Origin: Spartobacteria bacterium
Lineage (GTDB): Bacteria; Verrucomicrobiota; Kiritimatiellia; RZYC01
Assembly (NCBI GenBank): GCA_009930475.1
Contig: RZYC01000002.1
Location: 1,121-65,120 of the forward strand
Direction of reading: 5' to 3'
DNA length: 64,000 nucleotides
This document shows, piece after piece, positions 33,828-63,600 of the stretch. The position numbers and the translations under genes were made by a program. The notes beneath the pieces were generated by a model. The model was not told the origin of the DNA. It ran no database searches and worked only from the letters and a program-made list of their open reading frames with translations. How positions within the stretch are numbered: position 1 is the first letter of the stretch; every line of letters starts with the position of its first letter.

Positions 33828-34787
33828 CTACCAATCAACAAGTTCCCTTACCGCATACAAATGATTCCATCCCCCTTTAAATTTCCGTGAACCGCACGTC
33901 CTTTTGGAACCAAAAGCATCCCGATTCTCCTCAAAAAACGCCTCAACAAATGCCTCGCCGCCCACAACCCGTCCATCGGTAAAATAGCGACAGCGACACA
34001 TCAACCGTTCGAAATCTGTCAGTTTTAACCGCGCTCCCAGTTTTTTTCGTAAATAATCATGATCTGTACACGCCCGTTCAGGATGTCGACGAACCTCATC
34101 ATACATCAAAATACGTTCCAAATAGAACGTAGATACATCATTCCACTCACGTAGTGCAGCTTCCATCGTCATGACCAGCTTCCGAATCCCCCGCTGTGCC
34201 GTGGCCAACCCTCTCATCGCCTCGCCAAAACCACAATACTTGTAATGCTGAGGCTCAGTCACCATACCAGCACGCACAGGATTCATCTCTATATAGGCGG
34301 ACACCACACGCAACGGCGTACCCTCTTCGACCCATACACTTTTAAAACGGTCATCCCATAAGGTTCCCTTCCGCTGATGCACCCGGTTATACCAACGAGC
34401 AAAACGCTGCTTAACCTGCTTCATAAATTCGCTGATATCGTGCATTCGGCGCACATACCGCAGCCGGTCTGCCTCAACAGATGCATCATCCCACATAGAC
34501 CACATCTCATACAATGCAGCTAACTCATCATCCGAATAAAAACACGCCATCCGACACCGAAACACGTCATCTGAAACAACTTCGTCGCGATCCGGCTCTT
34601 CCAGCAGCAAATGCACATGATTCGACATAACTGCGTACGTCAACACATGCACACCCGTAAATCCCTCCACCCGCCGAATCAATGCACGCATATGTTCTTT
34701 CTCGACCTCCCCAAACAGCAGCAACTGCCCCGCAGTTCGACTCATGCAGTGATAATACGCCTTCTCTTTTCGTTTGATTCGTTTCAT
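33828..34787 (-). CDS. IS200/IS605-family Y1 HUH transposase, RAYT-like (REP-associated tyrosine transposase), with a long C-terminal extension (319 aa)
   Basis: HUH motif NHVHLLLE. RAYT-type block GTLWDDRFKSVWVE...LRVVSAYIEMNPVRAGMV, which includes the candidate catalytic Tyr. Paralog of the 54049-55029 gene. Confidence 0.7.
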   Translation of the reverse strand: MKRIKRKEKAYYHCMSRTAGQLLLFGEVEKEHMRALIRRVEGFTGVHVLTYAVMSNHVHLLLEEPDRDEVVSDDVFRCRMACFYSDDELAALYEMWSMWDDASVEADRLRYVRRMHDISEFMKQVKQRFARWYNRVHQRKGTLWDDRFKSVWVEEGTPLRVVSAYIEMNPVRAGMVTEPQHYKYCGFGEAMRGLATAQRGIRKLVMTMEAALREWNDVSTFYLERILMYDEVRRHPERACTDHDYLRKKLGARLKLTDFERLMCRCRYFTDGRVVGGEAFVEAFFEENRDAFGSKRTCGSRKFKGGWNHLYAVRELVDW

Positions 34788-34915: not shown

Positions 34916-36697
34916 CTACGCATCTTCGCGGACACTAAATTCCAGCTTCCATTTATCGTCAGAAACAGTGCTGACGCACCAGAGTTCGAACATTCCCAGT
35001 TCAGTGATGCGCGATTCGAATGTGACGGGAACGAATTCATCATCCACTTTTTCCGATTTGGGGAGCGTGGCCTCCATCGAATCAGATTCTTCCAACTCGT
35101 TAGAATTCCAGCGGGGCAGGAGCGCGCCCGCAACATCTTCTTTGCGTGTGTTGGAGCTGAAAAACCGGAACTTCACGGGCTCTCCAACAACTAGGCCAAT
35201 GTCGCCACCGGGAACCTGACACGCCGTACCTTCTTCCATGCCACACGGTACAACGCACAACGCTTTTAGTGGACGCGGGGCTCCGGGAATGGCCAATCCT
35301 GCTGTTTCGATGCCAATATAATAGGCATGGGCTGTTCCGCCACGAATGCGAATTCCTCCACTTTGTTTGGTAAATCCGTAAAAGGCCGCTCCGCGAGCTA
35401 CCGCGTAATCGAGGTCTTTGTTACTGGTGATCTGCTGAATCTGACTATCGCTGTACCAAGACTGCAGAACAGACAACACCTTATCACGCAAGGCATTGGA
35501 TTTCAAAACGCCACCATTGAACAACACATGGGTCGGCTTGGCCGGCTGTCCACCTGCTCCATGACTGGATAAAAAAGATGCTAAGTGCCGTGTTATGGCG
35601 GCATCTGATTCGAATGGCAGTCCCAGTTCGCGAAAGCCCGAAGCCATCCTACGCGCCGGTCTATCCGAAAGAGTACATTCGGGGGCAAATCCATCAATCA
35701 ATAACTGTGTTATTTCATCGCGGTTTAAATCAACAGAAATACTACCGCCAATCAGTTTGCTGCCACGTCCGAGAACTGTCACAGGAAACGTCGTGTCGCC
35801 ACCTTCAGTCAACAGGCTTTCCTTAGCACTGCGACAGGAATGCCACAGAGCAACAGACTGCCAAGCATCAACTTCTGTTCCTTTCTCGGCAAAGGCTTCG
35901 CGGGCATAATGCGCCAGCGTCAAGTCCATGTTATCTCCGCCTACGAGAATATGATCCCCCACAGCGACGCGCTGTAACTGTAAATCACCTTCTTCGCTGG
36001 CAATCTGAACAAGGGTAAAATCAGTAGTTCCGCCACCCACATCGCAAACAAGCAGCGAATCGCCCTCATCGAGATTTTTACGCCAGTCGTCACCGACATC
36101 GGCCAGCCAGGCATAAACGGCGGCCTGCGGTTCTTCCAACAGGACAAAATCCGTCGGAAATCCTGCAGCGAGGGCTGCTTCATGGGTGAGTTCACGGGCA
36201 CTGACATCGAAGGACGCAGGAACCGTCAACACTACCTGCTGATCAGCAAAGGCCTCATCATTATGGGCATCATTCCAAGCATCCACCATATGTGACAGAT
36301 AGATACGGGTCGCATCCAGCGGAGAAATCTTCGCAATATCCTCCGGAGCATTCCACGGCAGAATCGCATCCTTACGATCTGCCTTATTGTAGCATAACCA
36401 GGATTTAGCTGCGGCCACGGTACGAATCGGATTATCTGCCGACTGTTTGCGTGCCCATGTTCCTACGACATAAGCAGGATCGGTGTCCCACGGAAGGGAA
36501 TACGTTCCTTCTGTTTTTTCATTTTCTAGCGGAATATAGAGGAACGAGGGTAGTTCATTCTTCGATTCCACGGTTCCGGGTGCCGTGATTTGAGGGATGG
36601 GCAATAACTCGACACCGGCCTCGGCATCATCCATATTGCGAAATGCAACCACACTGTTTGTTGTACCTAAGTCGATACCAATCGCGTATTTTTTCAT
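34916..36697 (-). CDS. Hsp70-family ATPase (HscC/DnaK-like, atypical substrate-binding domain)
   Basis: MKKYAIGIDLGTTNSVVAF (phosphate-1), DVGGGTTDFTLV (phosphate-2). The ATG is the complement of 36695-36697, with a GGAGG-like site upstream. The ORF-track N-terminal extension of 97 aa is rejected. Confidence 0.85.
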   Translation of the reverse strand: MKKYAIGIDLGTTNSVVAFRNMDDAEAGVELLPIPQITAPGTVESKNELPSFLYIPLENEKTEGTYSLPWDTDPAYVVGTWARKQSADNPIRTVAAAKSWLCYNKADRKDAILPWNAPEDIAKISPLDATRIYLSHMVDAWNDAHNDEAFADQQVVLTVPASFDVSARELTHEAALAAGFPTDFVLLEEPQAAVYAWLADVGDDWRKNLDEGDSLLVCDVGGGTTDFTLVQIASEEGDLQLQRVAVGDHILVGGDNMDLTLAHYAREAFAEKGTEVDAWQSVALWHSCRSAKESLLTEGGDTTFPVTVLGRGSKLIGGSISVDLNRDEITQLLIDGFAPECTLSDRPARRMASGFRELGLPFESDAAITRHLASFLSSHGAGGQPAKPTHVLFNGGVLKSNALRDKVLSVLQSWYSDSQIQQITSNKDLDYAVARGAAFYGFTKQSGGIRIRGGTAHAYYIGIETAGLAIPGAPRPLKALCVVPCGMEEGTACQVPGGDIGLVVGEPVKFRFFSSNTRKEDVAGALLPRWNSNELEESDSMEATLPKSEKVDDEFVPVTFESRITELGMFELWCVSTVSDDKWKLEFSVREDA

Positions 36698-36764
36698 GAG
36701 AAACCTCCATATAAAGGTGAGAGGATATATAAATTGAATTGAATGGGAAAACGGAAGCGTCTGC

Positions 36765-37277
36765 TTAGACTTCCACTTCCACAGGAGCCGCGACAAAGAT
36801 AGAATCTTCGCGACCAGTCCACTGAGGTAATTCACACCGGGCGGCTTTCCAACCGTGATGACACACTTTCCCTTTATAGGGCGGCTCACCGGTAACATTG
36901 CCAGTGAGATGATAGGCAGCAGGATCAAACCCGGCAGGCACTTCGATAGAAGCCCCCTCGGCCTTGTCCGATTGCGGCTGAAAATCAAAGAATCGTTTTA
37001 GTGTGGCGGCACAGCCACGATGCACATCACGCACAGCGGCACCAATCTGGGCATCATTATACTCGTCGAGCGACTCCATCATAAAGTCGATGAAACGCCC
37101 TTCACGTTGCATTGCTGACAACACCGTTAATGCATCACTGCGATGAACAGGCTCTTTTTCCGGAAGAACTTCCACTGCCGGCTCCGATTCTTTTTTCATC
37201 AGTTCCTGCACCTGCTGCGCGAACGCGGCATTGCCCAGCACCTTGAACATCGCTTTAAAAGCTAAACCTAAACTCAT
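36765..37277 (-). CDS. Hypothetical protein (possibly DUF2760), upstream partner of the Hsp70 gene
   Basis: 170 aa, no TM, conserved-looking Cys/His patch KGKVCHHGWKAARC. It ends 68 nt upstream of the Hsp70 start on the same strand. Confidence 0.4.
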   Translation of the reverse strand: MSLGLAFKAMFKVLGNAAFAQQVQELMKKESEPAVEVLPEKEPVHRSDALTVLSAMQREGRFIDFMMESLDEYNDAQIGAAVRDVHRGCAATLKRFFDFQPQSDKAEGASIEVPAGFDPAAYHLTGNVTGEPPYKGKVCHHGWKAARCELPQWTGREDSIFVAAPVEVEV

Positions 37278-37502: not shown

Positions 37503-38801
37503 TTACTCATCCATCAAAATGAGATAGGGAACATAAGCTCCGGCAGCACCCTGCGTCACGTCCACACTATCGATTAATCCGTCAAAGAATCGGTCATAAA
37601 AACAGATCGATCCCTCACGTTTCACACTGGTATCGTTCTTAAAGACATTCATTACTAGAGACTGATCGCCCTTGAATTTATAGCCATAACCATATCCATT
37701 CTGATAGCCATATCCTAGAGAATGCCCTCTGGTTGCTTCAGAGAACGTGATCCATGAGACCATCTGTTGCGCATACCAAGTACAGGCCGAACCATAATCC
37801 ACAGAAACAGTGAAGCTTCCGCCATTTTTCGATTTCGTCACGCTTTTCGGGCTAAACTTGAATTCACATGCGGTTTGATCAACATCAAAGGTCTGATCCT
37901 TAAACAGAACACTGCCGCTGCGCTGTGAACGCGAATCATTGGCAAAGACGGACAACTCTACCGTTTGAGGTCCAGTGAAGGCATAATTATATCCGTAGCT
38001 ATAACCATAATTCGTGGATTTCATGGCCACCCAGCTCAGCGTTTTCACATACCATTCACAATTGCTACCAGCGGTGATCGTTACACCCACCGTCGATGCT
38101 TCACTTGGAGCGGCATAACTTGAGGGATTCATCGTAAACGGCACTGCAGGCTGAGTTATCGTCACTGTTTTTCCTGCAATAATGCAGGAACCAGAACGTG
38201 CAGCACATCCTTCATTACTTTCGAGATGGATCAGTAGATTGTTTACTGTTCCGGTAAAGACCGTTTGCACCGATTTTAAAGAAATCCAATCGGACACGGG
38301 AATAAACTGCCACTCGCAGGATTCATTGGATGTGCCCACCTTAATCGTCACATCCTGCGCGATCGATTTACTGCATTCAATGTTCTGAGGCGTAACCGTC
38401 GAGGTGCAGACGGCCACTTCCTGAGTCAGCGTAAATACAGCATCCTTAACCGTCACTGTTCCCACGCGATTCGACGCAGATGAATTTTCAAAAGCTATCA
38501 AATGAACGGTGCCGGAGCCTTGATATCCATATCCAGCAGTATAAGTCGCATTATCAACAGAAGAAATGGTGATCCAAGATTCAGACTCGGCTGGAATCCA
38601 ATATAGGTCAGGTGCATCAATGCCCACATTAAATGAAGGGGTTCCTCCAAAAGCATCTACAGAATCCGATGCCGGATCAAGACTGATACCAGCACGTCCA
38701 TACGCTAGAGATGACAACATCATAACGACACCCAACGACACGACAAACTTCAGCGAATTCATCCGATTCATATATCTATCTCCTATTAGTAACCATCTCA
38801 A
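37503..38801 (-). CDS. Secreted protein with three internal approximately 100-aa repeats (Gly/Tyr-rich motif, beta-rich), function unknown
   Basis: Signal peptide MNSLKFVVSLGVVMMLSSLAYG. The three-fold motif is listed in the finding on this gene. The exact start is uncertain: MNRMNSLKF is an internal start and a TTG start may be in use. Confidence 0.5.
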   Translation of the reverse strand: MRWLLIGDRYMNRMNSLKFVVSLGVVMMLSSLAYGRAGISLDPASDSVDAFGGTPSFNVGIDAPDLYWIPAESESWITISSVDNATYTAGYGYQGSGTVHLIAFENSSASNRVGTVTVKDAVFTLTQEVAVCTSTVTPQNIECSKSIAQDVTIKVGTSNESCEWQFIPVSDWISLKSVQTVFTGTVNNLLIHLESNEGCAARSGSCIIAGKTVTITQPAVPFTMNPSSYAAPSEASTVGVTITAGSNCEWYVKTLSWVAMKSTNYGYSYGYNYAFTGPQTVELSVFANDSRSQRSGSVLFKDQTFDVDQTACEFKFSPKSVTKSKNGGSFTVSVDYGSACTWYAQQMVSWITFSEATRGHSLGYGYQNGYGYGYKFKGDQSLVMNVFKNDTSVKREGSICFYDRFFDGLIDSVDVTQGAAGAYVPYLILMDE

Positions 38802-39038
38802 TGAGGAATCAGCTTCCGGTGGATAGTTAATGTAACGGTGGTTGCCCGATTATGCAACATCTAACAAACAAGACTCGGCATAGATGATCAACAAAAACGC
38901 TACATAACAATTTCCGAACTCAAACGAACCGCCGATCTGCACGAAAATATCCAAAGGGTGTCAAGAAGTAAATTATAGTTAGTCTGATTTATTATATGAT
39001 ATGCCTGTGGGTGGTATGGGCGGGCGAGAAAACATAAA

Positions 39039-40661
39039 TCAGAAGGGAGCGCCACAGGCACGCCAGAAGCGAATTTGGGCCTCGCGGGCGGCGTGACGAA
39101 AGGCTCTGGTTTCAAGGGTGATATCGGCAATTTGTCGAGATAACTGAATGTAGGCATCGGGGGTTAGCTGGCCGCCATTGTTCAATTTTTCAATGAGTCT
39201 TCTTAGGTGATCGACCTGAGGGCGTGTGTTCTGTTCAAACTGGATCTCGGCATCAATGGCCTCGTTCCACTCGCGAAAACGGATGTGGAGATCATTTTCA
39301 GCAGCAATGCGGCTTTTTTCGACTTCACTCCAAGCGGCGAGGACGGAATCTCGGGCATCGGACGAGTGATCAAACCAGTCAAATATCGGGATCGTCACAG
39401 CCGCTTCGATCGACCATTCATGATCGTCGCGGGAGTTGCTGCTTCCGCCTGTTTCGGCTTCACGGCTCCACGAGCGTTCTAGGGAAGAGCCCGTTTCGAC
39501 GCGCTGACTTCCACTGAAAAAGTCTGATACGGAGCTTTCAGAACGATTATCCAGTCCCGTGGCGGTGGTCGTTCCTGTTAACCCGCTGGTTTCATCGCGT
39601 TCCCCCTGTGCATAGGACACATCGATATGACGAATCCATGGCAACAGCCGGGCCTGACTAACACGGTAGCGCGCCTGTATTTCGCCGGCAGACCAATAGA
39701 CGACGGCCACATCGGGACGACCGGTAACGGCATGCTCCAACCATTGTGCGATCGAAGGACGGTCATTCCAGTTGGCCGACAGCCACGACCAGTCAAATAT
39801 AAAACCGGTTTGTGGAACGCGCAGTCCTGTGGCCTGTTCAATATCGGTGCGTGCATCGCGAAGATCGCGTTCACTGCGTGCGCGATCGGACTGAATATCG
39901 AGGGATCGGCGCAAGGCACCGGCGTAATCGGATGCTTTCATTTTTTGAGCGCGTTTCATTTCCTGCTGGCAGATTTCCGTTAGTTTTTCATAGACATGCT
40001 GCTCATACTGGAGCGTTTCCAGTCGAAGAAGCAGCAGTGCCGCTTCAGTCACGGTATCAATTTGCTCCACATGCAGCTTTGCTTCGGCCAGATGCAGTCG
40101 CGCCTGCATTTCACTGGATTCCGCCCGGAACTGCCATGGATTGGGTGGATAGAGTCGCAGTCCAATAGACCAGCCGGTTTGGTCGATATTCTCCCAGCCC
40201 GATCGTTCCCGGTCAGATTGACTGACTGACGTCTGATTTCGTGTACCTGACTGAGTGGAACGTGGTTCTTCGAAAGAAGGATAAACATCCTTGTCCTGGC
40301 TGGAGGATGAACGAAAAGAGGCACCTGTTTCTTCAGAGTGATTCCAGCTGGATGAGGAGCCACCGGCCTGAGACTGCTCCACACCAAAACGAATTTCCGG
40401 AGCCCGAATACGCCCGGCGAATGCGGTACGGGCGGCAGCCTGTCGCACATCAGTGAGACGCGACTGCACACGAGGATTATGTTGAAGTGCGGCATTAACC
40501 AGTTGAAGCATATTGGTTCCGGCACTACCCTCAGCGACCATTTCCAATTCGGCCAGTTCGACATAGATTTCCGGCGGAGCACTGCTTTCGGGCAGGTGCG
40601 TACAGCCGGTGAATCCCAGCAGGCCAATGATTATCCCGAATGTGGCAGGGATCCGCTTCAT
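39039..40661 (-). CDS. TolC-family outer membrane efflux lipoprotein (outer membrane factor)
   Basis: Lipobox LLGFTGC, two-fold repeated OMF helices. Its ATG overlaps the HlyD stop (ATGA). Confidence 0.8.
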   Translation of the reverse strand: MKRIPATFGIIIGLLGFTGCTHLPESSAPPEIYVELAELEMVAEGSAGTNMLQLVNAALQHNPRVQSRLTDVRQAAARTAFAGRIRAPEIRFGVEQSQAGGSSSSWNHSEETGASFRSSSSQDKDVYPSFEEPRSTQSGTRNQTSVSQSDRERSGWENIDQTGWSIGLRLYPPNPWQFRAESSEMQARLHLAEAKLHVEQIDTVTEAALLLLRLETLQYEQHVYEKLTEICQQEMKRAQKMKASDYAGALRRSLDIQSDRARSERDLRDARTDIEQATGLRVPQTGFIFDWSWLSANWNDRPSIAQWLEHAVTGRPDVAVVYWSAGEIQARYRVSQARLLPWIRHIDVSYAQGERDETSGLTGTTTATGLDNRSESSVSDFFSGSQRVETGSSLERSWSREAETGGSSNSRDDHEWSIEAAVTIPIFDWFDHSSDARDSVLAAWSEVEKSRIAAENDLHIRFREWNEAIDAEIQFEQNTRPQVDHLRRLIEKLNNGGQLTPDAYIQLSRQIADITLETRAFRHAAREAQIRFWRACGAPF

Positions 40662-41845
40662 GGAATGATCTCTGCGGAAGTGCATTTACGAATAAGAGCA
40701 CCCCAAAAAGATTTTTCGACACGAGGCAGAGTGATTTCCACCACCTCGCCCGCGATAAGCAAACTCTTTTCCGGCTGTTCCAGGCGTAATATAGCCCGAC
40801 GGGAACGCATCGGCACCATTCGTCCACCAATATTCAACAGCGCCGCCTCCACCCGCACTTCTTCAGACAAAGACTCCACGACGGCGGACAGGTTGACGCG
40901 ACCCTTTTCCCGACAATTCAACGCTCCGATCCTCACAACTTCATTTTCATGCATGCTCATACTCTGCTGCTCCGGAATCAGTGCCACAACCGTGCTCAGC
41001 GATTCGGGAACGATGCGTAAAACAGTGCGGTCAGCACGGATCACTTCCCCCTCTTCGCTACGGACTTCGGAAATAGTCCCCCGACAGGGTGAACGTAAAA
41101 CATAACTGTCTCTATATCGTTTTGTTTCCTGTTCGATGCGCTGCACCATATGCTGTACGTCATCTACGGATATACGCTCGCGATCAAATTGTTCCAGTGC
41201 CTGTTCGGACAATAGAACCTGTCGTTTCGCATCTGCAATAACCTCTTGCAGAGACTGCATGAGCTGCGCATGAATCTGCACAGATTCCTGGAGTTTAGCC
41301 CGCCGCGGCTCCAGCTCCGTTTTTTCGATTTCGTCGATCATGCCCTCGGCAAACGCGACTGAACGACGCGTCTGCTCAATAATCAGCTGCTCCAATTCTG
41401 CCTGATCAATGGCCTGGGTCATACGATACTTCGCCAGTGCCGTTTGACTGTCCGCAAGCCATTCTTTACGTTGCGACAGGTTGTTCACAAGACTGTAACG
41501 ACGGTCATAAATTGACTGCGCAGTGCGCTGCGCATCCAGCAGATCGCCGGCCAGTTCATAATCAATAGAGGCGGTATCCATTTCAACCAGCGGCTGCCCA
41601 TTCGTCACCGTTTCACCGGGAACAACCAGAATACGGCGAATTCGCGCCGTTTCCACAGGGGAAACAACAATGGTTTCCCTCCCTACAATTCCGAGAATAC
41701 GCGTACCAAGCACCCAGTCACTGTCTTTTAAAACCAGCGGTACAGCCAGCAGTGCGGCCAGCACCCACACAAAAAAAGGCCAAGAAGAGTGCAGACGTAC
41801 TTTCCAAGACAAACGAACGGGCACAGACGACCTTTTTCGATTCAT
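40658..41845 (-). CDS. HlyD-family periplasmic adaptor (membrane fusion protein)
   Basis: N-terminal TM anchor, biotinyl/lipoyl-like hairpin GQPLVEMDTASIDYEL, long coiled coil, C-terminal beta-barrel. Confidence 0.8.
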   Translation of the reverse strand: MNRKRSSVPVRLSWKVRLHSSWPFFVWVLAALLAVPLVLKDSDWVLGTRILGIVGRETIVVSPVETARIRRILVVPGETVTNGQPLVEMDTASIDYELAGDLLDAQRTAQSIYDRRYSLVNNLSQRKEWLADSQTALAKYRMTQAIDQAELEQLIIEQTRRSVAFAEGMIDEIEKTELEPRRAKLQESVQIHAQLMQSLQEVIADAKRQVLLSEQALEQFDRERISVDDVQHMVQRIEQETKRYRDSYVLRSPCRGTISEVRSEEGEVIRADRTVLRIVPESLSTVVALIPEQQSMSMHENEVVRIGALNCREKGRVNLSAVVESLSEEVRVEAALLNIGGRMVPMRSRRAILRLEQPEKSLLIAGEVVEITLPRVEKSFWGALIRKCTSAEIIP

Positions 41846-41859
41846 GGAATGTCCCTCCT

Positions 41860-42543
41860 TTATAATTCGACGGTTGTCCGATGCATCATCAACGACGCAT
41901 CCTGCACATGATCCATTTTTTTCACGGCCTCCACTAAATCCATCCGATAGCTCGGATCATACAGGCGCACGTGATACGCGAGCTCCAGCTGATGTCCCTG
42001 ACTGGTCTCGCGCATGGCTACCAAATCAAACTTTCGGCAAAAGTCTGCCAGAATCTTTTCCACCGCATCCTGCACGGCATCGGCCTCCACATTCATGGAG
42101 AAACGCAGCAGGCCCTCCATATTACGCCGCGAAGCGAAAGGCGAAAAATGAAGAAACAAGGCGGCCAGCCCGACACAGATCGCACCGACAACACCCACCA
42201 GGTACGTCGTCGCACCGCAGGCAATCCCCGAAGCGAGACAGGCAAAAAGAAAAATCATATCCCGTGGATCACGAACAGGCGTCCGAAAACGTATGACGGC
42301 CAGCGTCCCGAGAATACCCAGCCCTCTCGCCAGATTATTCCCGATCGCCATAATCAGCATGGCCGTAACCATGCCCCCCAGCACCATGGCATGGATAAAA
42401 GCGCGGGAATAAGAGAACCCCTGAAACGTCCAGCGGTAGATGGCCGCGAACCACATACATAGAACAAAGGAACACAACATGGCCGTGACAATATCCAGCG
42501 TTCCCATAATGCGAGCGGATTCAAATACGGTGGAAAAATCCAT
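41860..42543 (-). CDS. DUF4956-domain inner membrane protein
   Basis: Hallmark AVIRFRTPVRDPRDMIFLFACLASGIACGA between TM helices. It lies 14 nt upstream of the HlyD gene. Confidence 0.6.
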   Translation of the reverse strand: MDFSTVFESARIMGTLDIVTAMLCSFVLCMWFAAIYRWTFQGFSYSRAFIHAMVLGGMVTAMLIMAIGNNLARGLGILGTLAVIRFRTPVRDPRDMIFLFACLASGIACGATTYLVGVVGAICVGLAALFLHFSPFASRRNMEGLLRFSMNVEADAVQDAVEKILADFCRKFDLVAMRETSQGHQLELAYHVRLYDPSYRMDLVEAVKKMDHVQDASLMMHRTTVEL

Positions 42544-42715
42544 GCGTCATTTCCTCAATGGTTTAAAAATAAAGAACAGCGAAAAAGTAACACATCTGTG
42601 AAGAAATGCAAAAATTCATTCATAAAACAAATCGAGCGGGCGTACCGACTGAAAACAACATGAAAAAAGTTGAAAAATATACCCTCCTTGGGTAGACATA
42701 TTGTGGAGGTACAAT

Positions 42716-43774
42716 ATGAATACTACTATAAATGGAATAATCAACGTCTGGAACGCAACCTGGGAAACGGTCGTTGAGATGGCACCCTATCTGCTACTCG
42801 GGTTTGCCATAGCAGGTATTTTCAAAGTACTTATTCGGCGCGCATGGGTGATCGATCATCTGGGGGGCAAAGGCTGGCTGACGACCATCAAGGCCACACT
42901 GATAGGTGTACCCATGCCTCTGTGTTCCTGCGGGGTCATTCCAGTGGCCACCGCGCTAAAAAATCGCGGAGCTGGTAAAGGGGCCACCGCCGCGTTTTTG
43001 TCATCGACACCACAAACCGGAGTGGACAGTGTTCTCGCAACATGGGGTATGCTGGGTTGGCCGGTGGCCATCGTACGGCTGATATCAGCCTTCGCATCGG
43101 GTATTCTCTCTGGATGGCTGGTGGATCATTTTGATCACGAAAGAATTCCGCAGACCTCACCCGATCCGAAAGAAAAATCATCGGCACCGGTGGTGCATAC
43201 ATCACTACGGCAAAAGATAAAAGCAGCACTGAAATATGGCTTTTATGATTTGCCGGGCGATATCGGGGGCTCCGTAATCATCGGATTACTGATCGCAGGT
43301 GTGGTAAGTGCCGTTATTCCACAGAATGCGCTGCCCGGTTATGTGACCGGCGGCTTTACCGGACTGGTTCTCGTCACGCTGATGGCTGTTCCAGTGTACG
43401 TGTGTTCGACAGGTTCCATACCCATTGCTGTGGCACTGGTTCATGCCGGTTTTCCAGTGGGTACCGCCTTTGTTTTTCTAGTGGCGGGTCCGGCCACCAA
43501 CGCGGCGACGGTTAGTGCGTTATGGAAAGTGATGGGACGTCAGAGCGTCATGCTGTACCTGACATCAATCATTGTCGTGTCCTGGATCACGGGCGGCCTG
43601 CTGAATTTGATGAACGCACAAGTCCTCGGATATGTAACCCACAGCGGCATGGATCACAGCGGCATGAGCGAAAGCACGTGGACGGACCCCTTGGCGGGCG
43701 GGCTGCTCCTGCTCGTTCTGGTCTTTCCCATTATACGGGAAAAAATGACAAAGAACGGAAAGACAGAGAAATAA
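42716..43774 (+). CDS. DUF318/YraQ/ArsP-like permease
   Basis: Motif PMPLCSCGVIPVATAL and internally duplicated TM bundles. GGAGG sits 7 nt upstream of the MNTTING start. It is divergent from the DUF4956 gene. Confidence 0.65.
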   Translation: MNTTINGIINVWNATWETVVEMAPYLLLGFAIAGIFKVLIRRAWVIDHLGGKGWLTTIKATLIGVPMPLCSCGVIPVATALKNRGAGKGATAAFLSSTPQTGVDSVLATWGMLGWPVAIVRLISAFASGILSGWLVDHFDHERIPQTSPDPKEKSSAPVVHTSLRQKIKAALKYGFYDLPGDIGGSVIIGLLIAGVVSAVIPQNALPGYVTGGFTGLVLVTLMAVPVYVCSTGSIPIAVALVHAGFPVGTAFVFLVAGPATNAATVSALWKVMGRQSVMLYLTSIIVVSWITGGLLNLMNAQVLGYVTHSGMDHSGMSESTWTDPLAGGLLLLVLVFPIIREKMTKNGKTEK

Positions 43775-43846
43775 AGACAGCTTTCAACCGATAGATCTGC
43801 ACATTGCAAACCTCGCCCAGCCCCTCCCTCGCAAGGCATAAAAAAT

Positions 43847-43920
43847 AAAAAAGTTCCAGACATTGGAACTTTTTAACCACCGCTCCACGAAAAAGTTCCA
43901 ATCATTGGAACTTTTTTTTG
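43847..43920. repeat. Pair of REP-like palindromes between the permease and the regulator
   Basis: 43847-43875 (gttccagacattggaac variant) and 43890-43920 (perfect copy plus T8). Confidence 0.75.
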
Positions 43921-44038
43921 CGCTCCTTCAGCACACCTTCTGTCTATTTTTGTTTTTGCAAATCAGCATTTGTGTGAAAGAATGTTGAACCTTCATAGGG
44001 GTGTTTTCAGATCCACAGAGCAAAGACAGGATGTTTAT

Positions 44039-45394
44039 ATGGCAAAGGTGCTGCTATCCGATAATGATGAACAAACGCTTAAATTACTTCAGGCGCTCAT
44101 GACCAAAGAAGGACATCACGTCTACATAGGTCATACGCCGGAAATCACGGCTCATTTGATGGATACGCTAACCTATGACATATTCATCCTCGGCCTTCAG
44201 AGCAACACAGATGGCGGAATACATCTTCTGGAAAAAAGCTTATCCGCGCATCCCGGCACGCCGGTTATCCTGATGGCCGCAAAAGTTGATATCCCTACCG
44301 CATTGCTTGCGTTGAAGCGCGGTGCCTATGATTTTCTCGTCAAACCCATTTACATCAATGATTTCCTGTCGATTTTCTCCCATTGCGTAAAATGCCTGGA
44401 AATGAAAACAAACATGATCAATGGAAACGGTCTTTATAAAACCAATGAATCCTATCGTGATCTGATTGCCGAATCCGATTACATGAAGAAAATTCTCAAG
44501 AAACTTCCCCTGCTAGTCCATGGAAATATCAACTATCTCATTCACGGAGAATTTGGTACCGGACGGTCGACGATTGCATCAATCCTGAGTAAAAAAGAGC
44601 ACCTCAAACGAAAATCGAAATGCATAACCCTCTCCTGTCTGGAATACTCCACGAACATTGATGAAGCCATTATCTATGGCGGAAAATGCAATCTCAACGC
44701 ACTTAAAAACCAGGTCGAAGGCGCCATAGCCAACCTGCGTCCCGATGATGTCCTCATTATTAAAGATGCTCAGGCGATGCCCTTTGAAATCATGGACATG
44801 CTCTTGCCATTCATTGCCGGCGACCAGTTAAGCAGAGCATGGATTCAACAGCTGAAAAGCGCGACACTGCCCGAATCACGCATCAAAAAAACGGTTTGCC
44901 AAATTATTCTGATTACTTCTGACATCAGCAAAGGACATAACGCTACCAATCCTTTTCTGCGAAATTTCATCCATCTCATCCCCCATGCCCAGCTGTTTCT
45001 TCCGCCTCTGCGAGAGCGACGTGAAGCCATTCTTCCGCTGGCCTCTTTCTTTCTGGATCGCAATACCAGTGCGGGAATGCCGGCCTTCCACCTCAGCAAT
45101 GATCTTCAGCGTATTCTCGAATCCTATACCTGGCCGGGCAATATCAATGAGCTGCAGCAGGCCATCTTTTTTATGCAGACGCAGGCCTATGACAATATGC
45201 TGCGGCCGGAATATCTGCCCATGCTGATCCAGGTATCCATAGGCATACTAGCATCGGAAACACTGGCGGAATCCTATATGAGACAATTCAAAGGCCACGC
45301 ATTTCGAGCCTTTTTGGAACGCCACATGAATGAGGCATCCAAGCGATTGAAAAAAATGAAATCGTCAACCCAAACTTCGCCCGAGTCCATCTAA
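44039..45394 (+). CDS. NtrC-family-like regulator with REC domain and a degenerate sigma54-interaction AAA+ domain, no recognisable HTH
   Basis: REC: VLLSDNDE ... DIFILGL ... LVKP. AAA+: GEFGTGRST instead of GESGTGKE, no GAFTGA, Walker B IIKD, conserved C-terminal YTWPGNINEL. The tail has no Fis-type HTH. Confidence 0.55.
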   Translation: MAKVLLSDNDEQTLKLLQALMTKEGHHVYIGHTPEITAHLMDTLTYDIFILGLQSNTDGGIHLLEKSLSAHPGTPVILMAAKVDIPTALLALKRGAYDFLVKPIYINDFLSIFSHCVKCLEMKTNMINGNGLYKTNESYRDLIAESDYMKKILKKLPLLVHGNINYLIHGEFGTGRSTIASILSKKEHLKRKSKCITLSCLEYSTNIDEAIIYGGKCNLNALKNQVEGAIANLRPDDVLIIKDAQAMPFEIMDMLLPFIAGDQLSRAWIQQLKSATLPESRIKKTVCQIILITSDISKGHNATNPFLRNFIHLIPHAQLFLPPLRERREAILPLASFFLDRNTSAGMPAFHLSNDLQRILESYTWPGNINELQQAIFFMQTQAYDNMLRPEYLPMLIQVSIGILASETLAESYMRQFKGHAFRAFLERHMNEASKRLKKMKSSTQTSPESI

Positions 45395-58431: not shown

Positions 58432-61400
58432 TTATTCTGCCAACTGCACACGCACACGATAGAAGACCGTGGCATCGGCACGATTCACGGTATCCGTGTA
58501 ACTGTTCATCGCCGGATTGAGCGACGGGATATGGCCCTGAAGCACTTGCATTCCGTTCAGCAGATTGGTGCTGAAATAAATTGAATAGGAGCGGTTCGAC
58601 TGATCGGTTCCCAACCAGCGAATCACATGACCTTCATCGGTGCTGACAGAAATTAATTCGGATTTAAGCATGGAATCGGCCTGGGTGGGATCGGTTCCGG
58701 CGACATATTCCTCCCAAGCGCGCATCGTATCGTCATCGCTGTCACACCACGCGACATCTTCATAATCACTGTTGGTGGGATAATAAGTATGAATCCATTC
58801 TTCCGGCACAGGAACGGGCGTATTGGTGGTCACCATCGCGGCAAAGCTTGCGTTCAGGGTGCCATCACCGGAGACGTTCAGCCACTTATACTCGTAGGAA
58901 ACAGCGGTGTTATCAAAGGCAACACCAATACTGCTTCCATTGGTACACACATCAGCAATACGATATCGGCCGGCGGCTGTGATCGTGAATAACTGATCCT
59001 CACCATCGACAACGGTCACTTCGCCATCCGGGCTGACAGCTCCATGCTCCCCGGCGGTGACTGAAATGGTATGATTCGGCGCATCAACTTCGACGATGCG
59101 CAGGTACTGAACCAGAGCGCCGTCCGATGTAATCGAGCGATCATCTCCGGTACCGGCATCCAGACTGACCCAGATCCCGTCATCATAGAGTTCTTGACCG
59201 AGTTTCGGGGTGTCCCAGAGGAGCACAAAGGCATCACTGGAGGCCAAGTTCTGCACATTGTAATACTTGGTGACATCCAAACCCAGCGTGTTCCAGGGGC
59301 CCTGCAGGTCATACGTGTCACTTGCGGCGGTATGCGGATCGCCCAGAATCAACGCAAAGGCCAACACGACATCATTGGCAGCAGGTCCGGCACCGGCCGT
59401 TTCATATTTGGCGGTGGCCAGAATTTTCGGGTTGTCATTGCCATCGGCCTTGCGACTGAGAAAATAGCGATTCATGCTGCGCAAAGCCGGGCTGTTCAGA
59501 CGCGCCCAGTTGACCCGACCATACCACTGATCCAATCCATCGGAATATTGTGGCGGGTTTTCCCAGAAGGTCGCCTTGTTCCACTGCTTAAAGTTGACGA
59601 TATATTTACCGAAATTCAGCTCATAGAGCGCAAATCCCTGATCTCGCCCGCCCACTTCACCGGTGGCGGGAATAATGCCCTTTTCCTGACCGTAGAACAT
59701 CATGGGAATCCCGTCGATCATGGCGTTGCAGCCATAGCGCGAAGCCGTCATCCAGCAGTCATCTTCCGGCATCACTTCATCGTGACCGGTCAGATTCAGC
59801 AGCACAGAACCGCCATTATACGCGTTGCGTCGATCTTCATAAGCGTCCTTAAACTGATAGGTCTCGCTGATATGCGCCTGCGTAAATTTAAAGACGATAT
59901 CCTCATTCAGCACATCGAAATGACGATTGGAACGATATCCCGGAATCCCGCCATCCAATGTTTCTGCCATAAAGATGAAGTTCCATTTTTTACTGCGCGT
60001 ATGATTGATGAAATATTCCCAGAACTGCGGAGGCAAACCCTGACCGAAATCACAGCGCAGCCCGTCGATTCCTCGATTATCCTGGCTGTTCACGTAGCTG
60101 TTGGTGCCTGAGTGACCCGTTTTTTCCAGCCAGTAATCAATATAGTAGCCGAAATATTTCCAGAGATCCTTGGTATCCGTGCCCATGCCCGGGAAGTCAT
60201 ACCAGTCGCCTTCATTCAGATAATTAGCATTGTCGGCGGGGTTATTCCTGACCAGCGCAGCGTAATTTCCGAAGAATAATTCCGCCACATCGTCCCATTT
60301 ACCAAAGTCGCCACGATCCGGAGCCGTCGCACAGTCATTGCTGTATACACCGGAATAATAGGTGGCGGGCTGACCATAATCCGTCCAGAGCGAATACCAG
60401 CCCGGCTTGCCCCCGCCGATGCGATCGTCCTTATTGGTGCAGAATCCCAGATCCACGCCGGCCTGTCCAAATTCGGCGTCCCATGCGGTATGATTGAATA
60501 CGCCATCGAGCATGATGTTTATGGTGCCTACGGTACCGGTATAACTGTCGCAGAGTGCCACAAAATTGGTGAATTCGTTCATGGCATCGTCTTCGGTGCC
60601 TTCATCACCAAACCATTTCGATACGGCGAAATAATCGCGCGTCGCATAGGGACTGCCCGGCGTATAGCCCGACGGATCACCGCGCGTGGTATCGGCACTG
60701 GGATGAATGGGCTGGAACCACAGGCAGTTGGCCTGCAGGTAATCCATATGGTTCAAATTAAACTTCCCGTTATCGGGATCGGTTAAACTGCCAAAGGTGC
60801 TGCGCCCCGCCTCGCTGGATTCGGCTGCATTTACCGTCAGTGCGTTCAGCTCGTACATCGTCAGGTCATGCACCTTTTTCGGAGAAACCACGACGGCATG
60901 ATCGCGCAGGCCGTCGCTGCTGTACCAGGTCCAGTTGGTTCCGCTTTGTTCTGTCGTCTGGAAGCGGGCCGTCAAACGATAGGCCCCGCAGCGGCTGACC
61001 CTTCCCGTCCAATAGTAGTCATCCGGTCCACCGGTCATGGCAAAGGCCGTGAAATACGCGCCCACATCGTTGGTGGTCAGCAAATTGCCGTCGGGCGGAC
61101 AAATCCCGTCGGCATAACCATCCGGAGTGATATGCTCATTAGAATAATCCACATCCACATATTCACGACGTCCGACATTGGAAAAGATTTCCACATTTTT
61201 CGCCGTGTCATCGCCGGGATTATAATGCACCTGAATGTCCACCGAATCGCCATTGATTTCATCAATAAAGGCCTTGGAGGTGGTATAATCCGCATTTTGC
61301 CAGCTATTGCCGCCGTCAATGGACACCTGAAGTCCCGACGCACCGGGGGTATACAGGGAAACAATGAACAGGTGGTCAGGATCGGCACTGTATTCGGCAA

Positions 61401-63210
61401 AGCGTTCCACATTATTGCCTTCGCTGTTCCATGCACCGACTTTATAACGAATGGATGATCCCGCATCAACGGGGAGTCCATTGACGGATCCCTGCCACCA
61501 CATGGCATCACCGCCTTCGAATTCATCTTCCTCCACATGATCAAAGACACATTCCAGCACCAACGTATCGGCGTTACCAGCCACACCAAGACCGGTGATC
61601 ACCGGATCGGTACCATTGGTGGTGTAATAAACGACCACATGATCAGCCCAGCGATTGGTGCCCGATCCCTGCGCGTAGCCCACTTTGGTCCAAAACTGCA
61701 ATCCGTCAGCCCCCGTCTTCACCACATTGGTTCCATGATAAATGAATCCCGGTTCATCGCCGGAAGCTCCCGCATACGTGAAATGGAAAGGCTGCGACTG
61801 TGCTCCAGTGGCCGAAGCAAACAAGGTATTATCCATACCAATATAGGTGGTATCGCGATTCTCATAGGTCACCTCCATATAATATTCAACTTCGTTGGTG
61901 GCCACAAACGTATCGGCATCGATTTTCGTCTTCCAATATTTGTTATTATCGACCTCCGAATCAAACCCGAGTCCGGCAGTTTGCCAGCTTTCGGCTCCGA
62001 CCAGGCGGTAGAAGACGGATCCGCCATTCTGATCACCGGCCGTTTCGTCATTCTGAAAACAGTTTCCCGTGTAAAGATAGACATCGCTATCGGCATAAGG
62101 GATCAGCGGATTACGCATAAACGTTCCCTGCGGCTCATAATTGGCAGGGATATGCCAGCAGTTGCCGAGATGGGTAATATGCGCAGCGGTTGTCACACAT
62201 TGCGTGAAAGAATTACCGCTTGTTCCCCCTGCTTTTTTAGCGCGAACACGATAATAATAGGTGGTTTCAGAGATCAGCCCCGTTACCAGACAGGTCGTGA
62301 CACTGTCCGCACTGACATCTTCATATCCAGCAACAAACTTCATAAAATCATTGGTATCACTGACATCCACCCGATATTCCGATGCTCCTGTGCTGGATTC
62401 CCATGCGGCCGTAAAATCAAACTCATTCGTTACAGAAGCGGGCAAAACAGCCGGAGCATCCGGCACCGCAGGCGACGGATCGTGCACCACATAGAAGTAG
62501 TTCGACCCATCATTATTACCACGTAAAGTGCAGAAATCCGTATACTGTTCCACCATCTGCTGCGGGAATGTGGAGGACAGCACATAAAACCGAACTTCCG
62601 TTCCATCCACCTGGTCGGGAATTTCCGCTGTCATCGTAGAGGTATCACCTGTAGCAGCAACAAAAGAAGAACTGCTCCAGTCATTTACCGAATAACGGAC
62701 ATAGACTGTTTCTTCAAATGATTTCATTCGATCCAGCCCGATCGTAACCGTCACCGGATCAAGACCAGCCGTTTCCGCATCGTTCGTCACCGTAGCGATC
62801 GTGGCCGGCCATGCGGTGGTTTCCATAACGAGGAATGGACGATCCCACCAGGTCGAATCCCCCCCCAGACGAAATGTTAAAACGTGATCAGCGGTGAAAC
62901 TGCTGTTCATGTTACCCGCACCAAAACCAATCCGTGCCTGACCAAGCGTTGCATTTGCTGTGGCATTCTGCGAATCCGTTCCCGCCCCCCACTTCGGGTC
63001 GTAATTCCCCTTCTGATCAAAAATAAACCCACAGCTCCCATCTACAGTATTCGTGAGACTCACCGCCCAATAATTACCAAAAGCAATATCCTGAGCCATC
63101 CACGACGGCTCCCATCCGTTCATATCCCCGCGTACCGACTCCGCATCCGCCACACCCGCCCCCAGCAGACAGCAGAAAAACACAGCAAACAGCGCGCGAA
63201 TACCTCCCAT
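58432..63210 (-). CDS. Giant secreted multidomain glycoside hydrolase family 13 (alpha-amylase superfamily) protein, about 1,592 aa
   Basis: Signal peptide MGGIRALFAVFFCCLLGAGVADA. GH13 regions I (VFNHTA), II (GIDGLRCDFGQ), III (FIFMAETLDG) and IV (LTGHDEV). The ORF-track start at 63561 runs through the REP cluster and is rejected. Confidence 0.75.
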   Translation of the reverse strand: MGGIRALFAVFFCCLLGAGVADAESVRGDMNGWEPSWMAQDIAFGNYWAVSLTNTVDGSCGFIFDQKGNYDPKWGAGTDSQNATANATLGQARIGFGAGNMNSSFTADHVLTFRLGGDSTWWDRPFLVMETTAWPATIATVTNDAETAGLDPVTVTIGLDRMKSFEETVYVRYSVNDWSSSSFVAATGDTSTMTAEIPDQVDGTEVRFYVLSSTFPQQMVEQYTDFCTLRGNNDGSNYFYVVHDPSPAVPDAPAVLPASVTNEFDFTAAWESSTGASEYRVDVSDTNDFMKFVAGYEDVSADSVTTCLVTGLISETTYYYRVRAKKAGGTSGNSFTQCVTTAAHITHLGNCWHIPANYEPQGTFMRNPLIPYADSDVYLYTGNCFQNDETAGDQNGGSVFYRLVGAESWQTAGLGFDSEVDNNKYWKTKIDADTFVATNEVEYYMEVTYENRDTTYIGMDNTLFASATGAQSQPFHFTYAGASGDEPGFIYHGTNVVKTGADGLQFWTKVGYAQGSGTNRWADHVVVYYTTNGTDPVITGLGVAGNADTLVLECVFDHVEEDEFEGGDAMWWQGSVNGLPVDAGSSIRYKVGAWNSEGNNVERFAEYSADPDHLFIVSLYTPGASGLQVSIDGGNSWQNADYTTSKAFIDEINGDSVDIQVHYNPGDDTAKNVEIFSNVGRREYVDVDYSNEHITPDGYADGICPPDGNLLTTNDVGAYFTAFAMTGGPDDYYWTGRVSRCGAYRLTARFQTTEQSGTNWTWYSSDGLRDHAVVVSPKKVHDLTMYELNALTVNAAESSEAGRSTFGSLTDPDNGKFNLNHMDYLQANCLWFQPIHPSADTTRGDPSGYTPGSPYATRDYFAVSKWFGDEGTEDDAMNEFTNFVALCDSYTGTVGTINIMLDGVFNHTAWDAEFGQAGVDLGFCTNKDDRIGGGKPGWYSLWTDYGQPATYYSGVYSNDCATAPDRGDFGKWDDVAELFFGNYAALVRNNPADNANYLNEGDWYDFPGMGTDTKDLWKYFGYYIDYWLEKTGHSGTNSYVNSQDNRGIDGLRCDFGQGLPPQFWEYFINHTRSKKWNFIFMAETLDGGIPGYRSNRHFDVLNEDIVFKFTQAHISETYQFKDAYEDRRNAYNGGSVLLNLTGHDEVMPEDDCWMTASRYGCNAMIDGIPMMFYGQEKGIIPATGEVGGRDQGFALYELNFGKYIVNFKQWNKATFWENPPQYSDGLDQWYGRVNWARLNSPALRSMNRYFLSRKADGNDNPKILATAKYETAGAGPAANDVVLAFALILGDPHTAASDTYDLQGPWNTLGLDVTKYYNVQNLASSDAFVLLWDTPKLGQELYDDGIWVSLDAGTGDDRSITSDGALVQYLRIVEVDAPNHTISVTAGEHGAVSPDGEVTVVDGEDQLFTITAAGRYRIADVCTNGSSIGVAFDNTAVSYEYKWLNVSGDGTLNASFAAMVTTNTPVPVPEEWIHTYYPTNSDYEDVAWCDSDDDTMRAWEEYVAGTDPTQADSMLKSELISVSTDEGHVIRWLGTDQSNRSYSIYFSTNLLNGMQVLQGHIPSLNPAMNSYTDTVNRADATVFYRVRVQLAE

Positions 63211-63221
63211 ACGGTCGTTTT

Positions 63222-63339
63222 GAAAAATTCCAATGATTGGAACTTTTTCAGACAAGACTTCCAATGAGTGGAACTTTTTATGGAAATACTTCCAATCATT
63301 GGAACTTTTTTCAGAACGTTTTCCAATCATTGGAAAACG
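63222..63339. repeat. Cluster of four REP-like palindromes (BIME-like) immediately upstream of the GH13 gene start
   Basis: Copies at 63222-63249, 63258-63283, 63289-63312 and 63319-63339. ORFs 63120-63326 and 63233-63544 are translation artefacts (…KVPIIGKSF…). Confidence 0.8.
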
Positions 63340-63600
63340 CATTCGACGCCAAATATCACGCTTTAATAAAACGCTTATACACGCGGATAAAAAACCATTC
63401 CTCATAAATCCACCTTTCGGAAAACGCCTACCACAACCAGAGCAACTGCGGACAAAAAACACACAAATAGAAAGCACACAAATAATAGAAAGCAGGGTAA
63501 AAATGACACGATCCTGGAAAGAAAGCAAAAAGAAAAATGAATGAGCCATCCACTCAACCAAATGAGACTTATCGCATAGAAATGGACGCAGGTCTAGGGA

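Follow-up and report, generated by a model that had tools for sequence, protein, structure and literature searches.

A DUF4956, adaptor and channel operon

We analysed a 64,000-nucleotide stretch of DNA (hereafter the window) from a metagenome-assembled genome (MAG) of a Spartobacteria bacterium (Verrucomicrobiota; Kiritimatiellia; assembly GCA_009930475.1, contig RZYC01000002.1, positions 1,121 to 65,120 of the forward strand), in which three minus-strand genes encode a DUF4956 protein, a membrane-fusion protein (MFP) and an outer-membrane factor (OMF). Scores are given against family cut-offs; aa, amino acids; nt, nucleotides; TM, transmembrane.

41860 to 42543, minus strand: DUF4956 protein, 227 aa (PF16316, 46.6 bits against a cut-off of 30.6, E 4e-12)
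42259 to 42291, minus strand: hallmark loop R85-F-R-T-P-V-R-D-P-R-D95 of DUF4956, between TM3 and TM4 (alignment of 31 sequences)
41884 to 42117, minus strand: C-terminal ACT-like (ferredoxin-fold) domain of DUF4956, residues 143-220 (AlphaFold2 secondary structure and Foldseek)
41846 to 41859, minus strand: DUF4956-MFP spacer, 14 nt, with an AGGAGGG ribosome-binding site (sequence reading)
40658 to 41845, minus strand: EmrA-like MFP, 395 aa (HlyD_3, 38.8 against 22.2; HlyD_D23, 33.4 against 30)
40796 to 40813, minus strand: basic motif P-M-R-S-R-R in the beta-barrel region of the MFP (alignment of 38 MFPs)
39039 to 40661, minus strand: TolC-family OMF, 540 aa from the MKRIP start (OEP, PF02321, 57.2 bits against 22)
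42544 to 42715, no strand: A+T-rich intergenic region, 172 bp, between DUF4956 and a divergent SO_0444-type permease (coordinates and sequence)
42716 to 43774, plus strand: ArsP_1 (DUF318) permease of the SO_0444 Cu/Zn efflux family (NF033936, 316.6 bits against an equivalog cut-off of 300)

Coordinates and junctions read from the sequence agree with the first-pass annotation of this DNA, which had described three contiguous minus-strand genes separated by a 14-nt gap and then an ATGA overlap. The DUF4956 stop codon is followed by the spacer aggagggacattcc, which contains AGGAGGG, and then by the MFP start, and the MFP stop overlaps the OMF start in ATGA. The longest open reading frame (ORF) of the OMF starts at 40685, and its length is counted here from the MKRIP start. 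The 172-bp intergenic region presumably serves as the promoter region of the operon; a scan for sigma-70 promoter and terminator consensus sequences gave matches at shuffle level and none above the shuffle expectation.

The same three-gene arrangement is found on three independent Logan contigs (L092, L093 and L094), of which the first is 100% identical in nucleotide sequence to window positions 37771-43871 and the second encodes an MFP 98% identical to that of the window. Thus, misassembly is ruled out. Neither the ORF list nor a hidden Markov model (HMM) search revealed a pump of the ATP-binding cassette (ABC), resistance-nodulation-division (RND) or major facilitator superfamily (MFS) type adjoining the operon in the window.

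A conserved module in relatives and its components

Scanning one genome per GTDB species with the DUF4956 alignment yielded 80 loci, mostly labelled at NCBI as MAGs of the Planctomycetota-Verrucomicrobiota-Chlamydiota (PVC) group, with a few labelled "bacterium", Omnitrophota or Pseudomonadota. Their neighbouring genes were scored with HMMs built from the first examples, and the denominators given here are the loci with room for the gene in question. Kiritimatiellia, Lentisphaerota/Victivallales and Verrucomicrobiota have many homologues of the window DUF4956 protein (215-232 aa, 55-78% identity), and the module in which these lie, also in the closest relatives (71-78% identity), has the order VTC (PF09359), DUF4956, MFP, OMF. 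The VTC gene upstream of DUF4956 is thus a fourth gene, which the first-pass annotation had missed. It lies directly upstream in 78/79 loci, counting one (L078) whose VTC gene overlaps the longest DUF4956 ORF. The MFP gene lies directly downstream in 67/73 loci, or in 68/73 if a locus with the MFP and OMF genes upstream of VTC-DUF4956 is included (L056), and an OMF was found in 52 of 64. One further locus has the rotated order CotH-MFP-OMF-VTC-DUF4956 (L039). The median DUF4956-to-MFP gap is 9.5 nt (36 loci). A direct DUF4956-MFP adjacency that recurs in 67 of 73 genomes is far beyond chance.

Searches from other starting points gave the same picture. A metagenome search from the MFP side retrieved four loci, with DUF4956 upstream of the MFP in all three that had room and an OMF downstream in all four, and more divergent representatives of 50%-identity clusters carry VTC-DUF4956-MFP with or without OMF. 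Two cultured Bacteroidota strains also have the pairing on plasmids. In Chondrinema litorale (L102, 6938-9878), DUF4956 is followed by an HlyD gene and a gene for a 416-aa protein, with genes for a bacteriophytochrome kinase and a response regulator upstream; in Hymenobacter volaticus (L103, 5772-9012), an MFP-like gene (359 aa), DUF4956 and TolC stand in a row. We considered the 416-aa product of Chondrinema as an OMF, which could not be demonstrated (hhalign E 0.26, no Pfam match).

The flanks of the surveyed loci hold heterogeneous housekeeping genes. A Pfam tally of 196 flanking genes (105 upstream and 91 downstream) showed no recurrent ABC, RND, MFS or MacB family, and the module is therefore self-contained and pump-less. 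These results bear on what the first-pass annotation had proposed, namely an MFP-OMF pair in which DUF4956 is the only co-encoded polytopic inner-membrane protein. The neighbourhood survey that it had called for shows the DUF4956-MFP adjacency to be conserved, in the PVC genomes counted above and on the two Bacteroidota plasmids, no classical pump recurs beside the homologous operons, and its core idea holds. Its view that an MFP-OMF context departs from the usual VTC or CotH context of DUF4956 needs revision: the MFP-OMF context is real, but in relatives all these genes belong to one module, in which VTC is nearly constant and CotH occasional.

Giant CotH proteins with Lamin-Tail domains (CotH-LTD) are present in 23/80 loci. 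They are 1500-2600 aa long, contain a CotH kinase domain along with several Lamin-Tail domains (L014, 2700-8474, and equivalents) and flank the module in variable positions and orientations; most have N-termini that, judged by eye, resemble signal peptides. One locus (L008) has a 1902-aa CotH-LTD protein and a 241-aa protein just upstream of the module, and in another (L014) a 241-aa protein lies between CotH and VTC. PADLOC anti-phage models matched neither the three window proteins nor the VTC and 241-aa (p241) proteins of L014.

The VTC proteins are soluble triphosphate tunnel metalloenzyme (TTM) domains. Their bacterial profile matches the catalytic domain of yeast Vtc4 (3g3q) over its full length (E 7e-10), and Vtc4 residues K200, R264, R266, K281 and E426 align with K15, R76, R78, K93 and E213, all invariant in 30 bacterial sequences. 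We take the R264A/R266A/E426N triple mutant of Vtc4 to be catalytically inactive. A structure has been reported for a VTC complex with these three substitutions, and yeast VTC makes polyphosphate in the cytosol and threads the growing chain through a basic-lined channel (PMC9911596). Because the match to Vtc4 runs from end to end and the catalytic residues are invariant, the VTC proteins of the relatives are probably active polymerases. The gene pair occurs in monoderm bacteria as well, with VTC adjoining DUF4956 in 4/4 plasmid or chromid matches.

DUF4956 is the most conserved component of the module: its homologues in relatives are 50-78% identical to the window protein, and the corresponding ranges are 24-52% (MFP) and 22-38% (OMF). 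An AlphaFold2 model (pLDDT 83.6) has five TM helices (residues 15-39, 47-66, 70-87, 93-110 and 114-133; predicted N-out topology) with periplasmic loops of about three residues each, followed by a beta-alpha-beta-beta-alpha-beta domain. Foldseek matched this C-terminal domain to ACT, NikR and S6 folds in PDB, including the ACT domain of RelA (3ibw), the C-terminal domain of NikR and IlvN; it found no PDB template for the TM part, and a sequence-profile search of PDB found nothing. The RFRTxxxDPRD hallmark that the first-pass annotation had placed between TM helices is confirmed, with R85, F86, R87, T88, R91, D92, R94 and D95 invariant across 31 homologues, and the members from Bacteroidota and Sinorhizobium also retain IRFR. 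On the basis of the positive-inside rule and with the ACT domain in the cytoplasm, we predict that this RFRTxxRDxRD loop faces the cytoplasm. An exhaustive search (E <= 1e-3) returned 6363 DUF4956 representatives at 50%-identity clusters, the best 150 of which are standalone proteins of at most 315 aa each.

The MFP is of the EmrA type. Its family profile has EmrA (4tko) as best PDB match (E 8e-24), and Foldseek placed the AlphaFold2 model closest to the same structure (2.6e-17) and then to EmrAB-TolC (8zar/8zal). The model shows an N-terminal TM anchor (residues 22-38), a lipoyl domain, an alpha-hairpin of about 75 residues and a beta-barrel, with no membrane-proximal domain. Adaptors of the EmrA type work with inner-membrane partners devoid of a periplasmic domain. 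The MFP has few conserved positions; these include a basic cytoplasmic tail with an HPR..RR..WPFxVW sequence, whose two tryptophans lie at the cytoplasmic end of the TM helix. Its basic motif reads R-G-R-R in the family consensus, with R347 invariant and R349 and R350 nearly so in the 38 MFPs. For an adaptor, the conservation of this RGRR motif and of the cytoplasmic tail is unusual. A word-index search with the window MFP returned eight proteins.

The OMF is a lipoprotein of the NodT/OprM subclass, with the signal peptide MKRIPATFGIIIGLLGFTG-C20 and a lipobox cysteine, Cys20, that is nearly invariant across 29 OMF sequences. OEP matches 29/29 family members. A PDB search with the window OMF as a single sequence found nothing, and the family profile was needed to recover VceC (1yc9, 8e-18), then SilC, OprJ, MtrE, CusC, OprM and TolC, with matches spanning positions 56-508, so that both halves are related to solved OMFs. 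Two long inserts rich in serine, threonine, aspartate and glutamate appear, from their sequence positions, to sit at the expected extracellular loops.

Proposed polyphosphate export and alternative readings

Whatever the cargo, DUF4956 is quite likely the dedicated inner-membrane partner of this MFP-OMF pair, and we propose it as the inner-membrane component of the module. For the module as a whole, a VTC-DUF4956 pair that is joined in diderm PVC bacteria by an adaptor and a channel, with no pump, is most simply read as a synthase-coupled exporter. From gene content, conservation, protein folds and the retained VTC catalytic residues, we infer physical coupling of the components, polyphosphate as substrate and the direction of transport. 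The resulting reading, our best explanation at about even odds, is an envelope-spanning polyphosphate export system of VTC, DUF4956, MFP and OMF. In such a system, the soluble VTC-type triphosphate-tunnel polymerase would use ATP to make polyphosphate on the cytoplasmic side of the inner membrane and hand the growing chain to a DUF4956 oligomer acting as the inner-membrane translocon, with the RFRTxxRDxRD loop and the ACT-like domain facing the cytoplasm. The EmrA-like MFP, with its one TM anchor, and the lipoprotein TolC-family channel would then carry the polymer across the periplasm and the outer membrane. Energy would come from polymerisation, the ATP-consuming VTC being the engine in place of an ABC, RND or MFS pump, much as the yeast VTC complex couples synthesis to translocation. 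The earlier proposal that DUF4956 replaces the energising transporter therefore stands as far as the missing pump goes but not for DUF4956 by itself, as the VTC polymerase is the likely energy source and substrate supplier. CotH-LTD proteins might act on or use the exported polymer, which is speculation.

The module combines an EmrAB-TolC-like adaptor with a yeast-VTC-like enzyme. It shares with EmrAB-TolC (4tko, 8zar, 8zal) an MFP with TM anchor, lipoyl domain, long hairpin and beta-barrel, a TolC-family channel and an inner-membrane partner with almost no periplasmic mass; in contrast, its co-encoded inner-membrane protein is the 227-aa DUF4956 rather than an MFS, ABC or RND protein, and the unit conserved among relatives includes a cytoplasmic VTC polymerase. 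Like yeast VTC (Vtc4/Vtc3/Vtc1; 3g3q, 7ytj, 8i6v), the module has a Vtc4 TTM homologue with invariant catalytic Lys, Arg and Glu beside a small polytopic membrane protein. However, that membrane protein is DUF4956 and not a Vtc1-type domain with three TM helices, it is a polypeptide separate from the enzyme, an SPX domain is lacking, and an MFP-OMF duct for the two membranes of the envelope comes in addition; in the window, moreover, VTC is not adjacent.

The module also extends a gene set that is already known. Gram-positive Pel loci carry CotH, a polyphosphate polymerase and DUF4956 (bioRxiv 10.1101/768473; PMC12345266, SIR_1592 to SIR_1594). They have the VTC-DUF4956 pair with a secreted CotH-type protein nearby as in the module, but are monoderm, linked to Pel polysaccharide genes and devoid of MFP and OMF. 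For a tie between VTC or DUF4956 and an MFP-OMF pair, our literature search found no precedent.

Other envelope-spanning routes offer partial parallels, in a comparison that draws on general background and on the review PMC8277102. In synthase-dependent exopolysaccharide secretion (cellulose Bcs, alginate, Pel), a polymer made at the inner membrane likewise exits by a dedicated envelope-spanning route, but through tetratricopeptide repeat (TPR) proteins or beta-barrel porins rather than an MFP-OMF pair. Type I secretion (HlyBD-TolC) likewise uses a TM-anchored MFP and a TolC-type channel, but needs an ABC transporter. The presumed cargo of the module is an inorganic polyanion. Measured against canonical tripartite pumps and type I secretion systems, the module has the MFP and the OMF and lacks the ABC, RND or MFS engine.

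Several observations weigh against polyphosphate export by this route. TolC-type ducts are usually cation-selective and not obviously suited to a polyanion, and MgtC, which DUF4956 resembles in architecture, is known as a regulator of membrane proteins and not as a channel. No VTC-DUF4956 or DUF4956-MFP fusion was seen among the best 150 of the 6363 cluster representatives. The OMF was undetected in 12 of 64 loci, and four loci have VTC-DUF4956 only. In the window, tblastn with five VTC proteins found no VTC over the whole 64 kb, and a search with the VTC of the closest relative found no NCBI-sourced VTC assignable to the window MAG. The plasmids of Chondrinema and Hymenobacter carry no VTC. 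On pSymA of Sinorhizobium meliloti (L104, 5269-7639), a gene for a caspase-like Peptidase_C14 (538 aa) is directly followed by DUF4956, and another DUF4956 member precedes an M28 peptidase gene. Thus, DUF4956 is not tied to VTC everywhere. The Bacteroidota cases strengthen the pairing of DUF4956 with MFP/OMF and weaken VTC-made polyphosphate as a necessary cargo. Finally, the literature searched contained no experiments on bacterial VTC or DUF4956 proteins, and the five papers there that name DUF4956 do not deal with this module. The pSymA context is also a hint that other systems may use DUF4956 as a membrane effector or channel.

One alternative, which we think unlikely, makes DUF4956 an MgtC-like accessory or regulatory protein, for example one that anchors or gates VTC or senses a ligand through its ACT domain, and has the MFP and OMF use a conventional pump encoded elsewhere. 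MgtC and YhiD have the same architecture of five TM helices followed by an ACT domain, and many homologues carry the name YhiD at JGI. A Streptococcus homologue of DUF4956 has been described as an MgtC TM domain joined to an ACT domain, and MgtC acts by binding membrane proteins, namely F1Fo ATP synthase and PhoR (PMC12345266). DUF4956 has no recognisable energy-coupling motif. Parts of tripartite pumps can be unlinked, as is tolC in E. coli, and 12 of 64 loci here have no detected OMF. The resemblance to MgtC/SapB/YhiD (PF02308), with a cytoplasmic ACT-like domain placed after a small polytopic one at the N-terminus, did not lead us to accept DUF4956 as a member of that family: its score of 14 bits lies below the cut-off of 31.4 (E 0.066), and we did not file it under MgtC because the hhalign match to E. 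coli YhiD, although collinear, is insignificant (E 0.023, probability 2%). To our knowledge, MgtC does not partner an MFP-OMF pair. Further points against this alternative are the near-constant, closely spaced DUF4956-MFP adjacency, flanks in which no pump family recurs, the recurrence of the association in Bacteroidota and the conservation of DUF4956, which exceeds that of the MFP and of the OMF. EmrA-type MFPs, moreover, are normally encoded beside their own transporter.

A second alternative, also improbable in our judgement, is that DUF4956, MFP and OMF form a self-sufficient exporter or channel for another cargo, with VTC as an optional if frequent neighbour. Such a cargo could be, among others, metal cations, metal-phosphate complexes, orthophosphate or oligophosphate, or some other anion. 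It draws on the VTC-less trios or pairs of the window, Chondrinema litorale and Hymenobacter volaticus, on the divergent Cu/Zn efflux permease in the window and on the caspase-like and M28 peptidase contexts of DUF4956. However, within the clade of the window protein only one of the 79 loci fails to place VTC next to DUF4956, a candidate for the detached VTC of the window organism exists in the same sample, and the SO_0444 neighbour is absent from 80/80 relatives. DUF4956 moreover has no similarity to transporter families in Pfam or by PDB profile, and the Bacteroidota examples number only two, with the absence of VTC read from plasmids.

ABC, RND and MFS transporters serve as the inner-membrane engines of tripartite systems (PMC8277102). 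MFP-OMF systems are defined by these engines, and here a version with none of them is widely conserved. We tentatively suggest, as a possibility that we hold with more doubt than belief, that the polyphosphate exporter would be a fourth kind of tripartite system, whose engine is a polymerase-coupled VTC-DUF4956 translocon delivering polyphosphate to the PVC cell surface. DUF4956 would then be the polyphosphate channel that has long been missing in bacteria, also for the VTC-DUF4956-CotH loci of Gram-positive species. The giant secreted CotH-LTD kinases might draw on the exported polymer as a phosphoryl donor outside the cell, a hint as to why secreted CotH kinases travel with the VTC-DUF4956-MFP-OMF genes. 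Polyphosphate has been reported outside bacterial cells, and we know of no bacterial polyphosphate exporter. If correct, the polyphosphate reading would assign a function to DUF4956, a large family, and to bacterial VTC proteins, and would provide the first candidate route of bacterial polyphosphate export. Demonstrated export of polyphosphate would make the module a new class of secretion system.

A candidate VTC gene of the window organism and neighbouring genes

Among the PVC loci surveyed, only that of the window lacks an adjacent VTC, and the 172-bp spacer holds no detectable VTC remnant. A candidate comes from Logan, where a VTC protein found only there (P0126, 59% identical to the VTC query of the closest relative) is encoded on contig L095. 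This contig comes from run SRR8327731, the run that also yielded the contig 100% identical to the window, and its G+C content of 0.50 equals that of the window. Its tetranucleotide profile correlates with that of the window at r = 0.884; chunks of 6.2 kb from the window itself span 0.876-0.955, and other organisms reach at most 0.825. Positions 1896-6129 of L095 encode a secreted 1132-aa protein and then the orphan VTC gene. Over 176 residues (27-202), the secreted protein shares 49% identity with the L014 protein of 241 aa encoded between CotH and VTC. The two assemblies of the contig each stop 70 nt past the VTC gene, and this stretch contains no DUF4956 start in any frame. The orphan VTC may thus belong to the window organism. 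Because L095 shares the run, the G+C content and the tetranucleotide profile with the window, and its upstream gene shares a domain with the L014 protein, the module of the window organism is probably split, its VTC half lying elsewhere, a conclusion drawn from circumstantial evidence. In terms of polyphosphate export, the VTC gene would have been separated from the operon in this organism, and the window would show the DUF4956-MFP-OMF half.

About 4 kb downstream of the operon, a 319-aa ORF (33828-34787, minus strand) resembles, by eye and from sequence only, an IS200/REP-associated tyrosine transposase, and may have driven the rearrangement by which VTC was separated. One could imagine that the operon is a decaying remnant with no current function, left when a rearrangement removed VTC. 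The unique position of the window among the surveyed PVC loci and the nearby IS200-like ORF fit this idea, but we hold it to be very unlikely. All three ORFs are intact, the ribosome-binding site and the ATGA coupling are kept, the same arrangement recurs in the three independent Logan assemblies, and a plausible VTC exists elsewhere in the sample. The operon itself is not decayed. In its DUF4956, every one of the 48 family-invariant residues is conserved.

We also considered whether the window encodes a CotH protein of its own, at 58432-63561 (minus strand), and rejected this candidate. The gene encodes a 1709-aa protein with Pfam fn3 matches and no CotH, and only its C-terminal ~215 residues are shared, at 33% identity, with residues 1687-1892 of the L014 CotH-LTD protein. 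This C-terminus is probably a sorting or anchoring domain common in the PVC group.

The first-pass annotation had further pointed to a divergently transcribed DUF318 permease sharing the 172-bp control region with the operon. Gene and spacing are as it described, but a functional link is unsupported, since none of the 80 species-representative loci has an SO_0444 homologue next to the module, which limits this neighbour to the window lineage. That this permease is the transporter of the MFP-OMF pair in a Cu/Zn tripartite exporter, with DUF4956 incidental, is extremely improbable: it belongs to a bona fide inner-membrane efflux family and shares the intergenic region, but it is transcribed in the opposite direction, has no counterpart beside the module in relatives, and the MFP-OMF pair is translationally coupled to DUF4956 instead. 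Polyphosphate binds metals, which makes a link between SO_0444 and the module conceivable; nothing supports one.

Further genes lie on either side. Downstream of the OMF, after about 240 nt, 37503-38801 (minus strand, as the OMF) encodes a BACON-domain protein of 432 aa that has a signal peptide and several repeat units rich in GYGY; it is not kept beside the module in relatives. Beyond it, an ORF for an Hsp70-like ATPase overlaps one for a DUF2760 protein (34916-37277, minus strand; E 2e-44), a recurrent and poorly understood gene pair. On the other side, just beyond the permease, 43970-45394 (plus strand) encodes a response-regulator receiver fused to a weakly matching sigma-54 activator AAA+ domain and lid.

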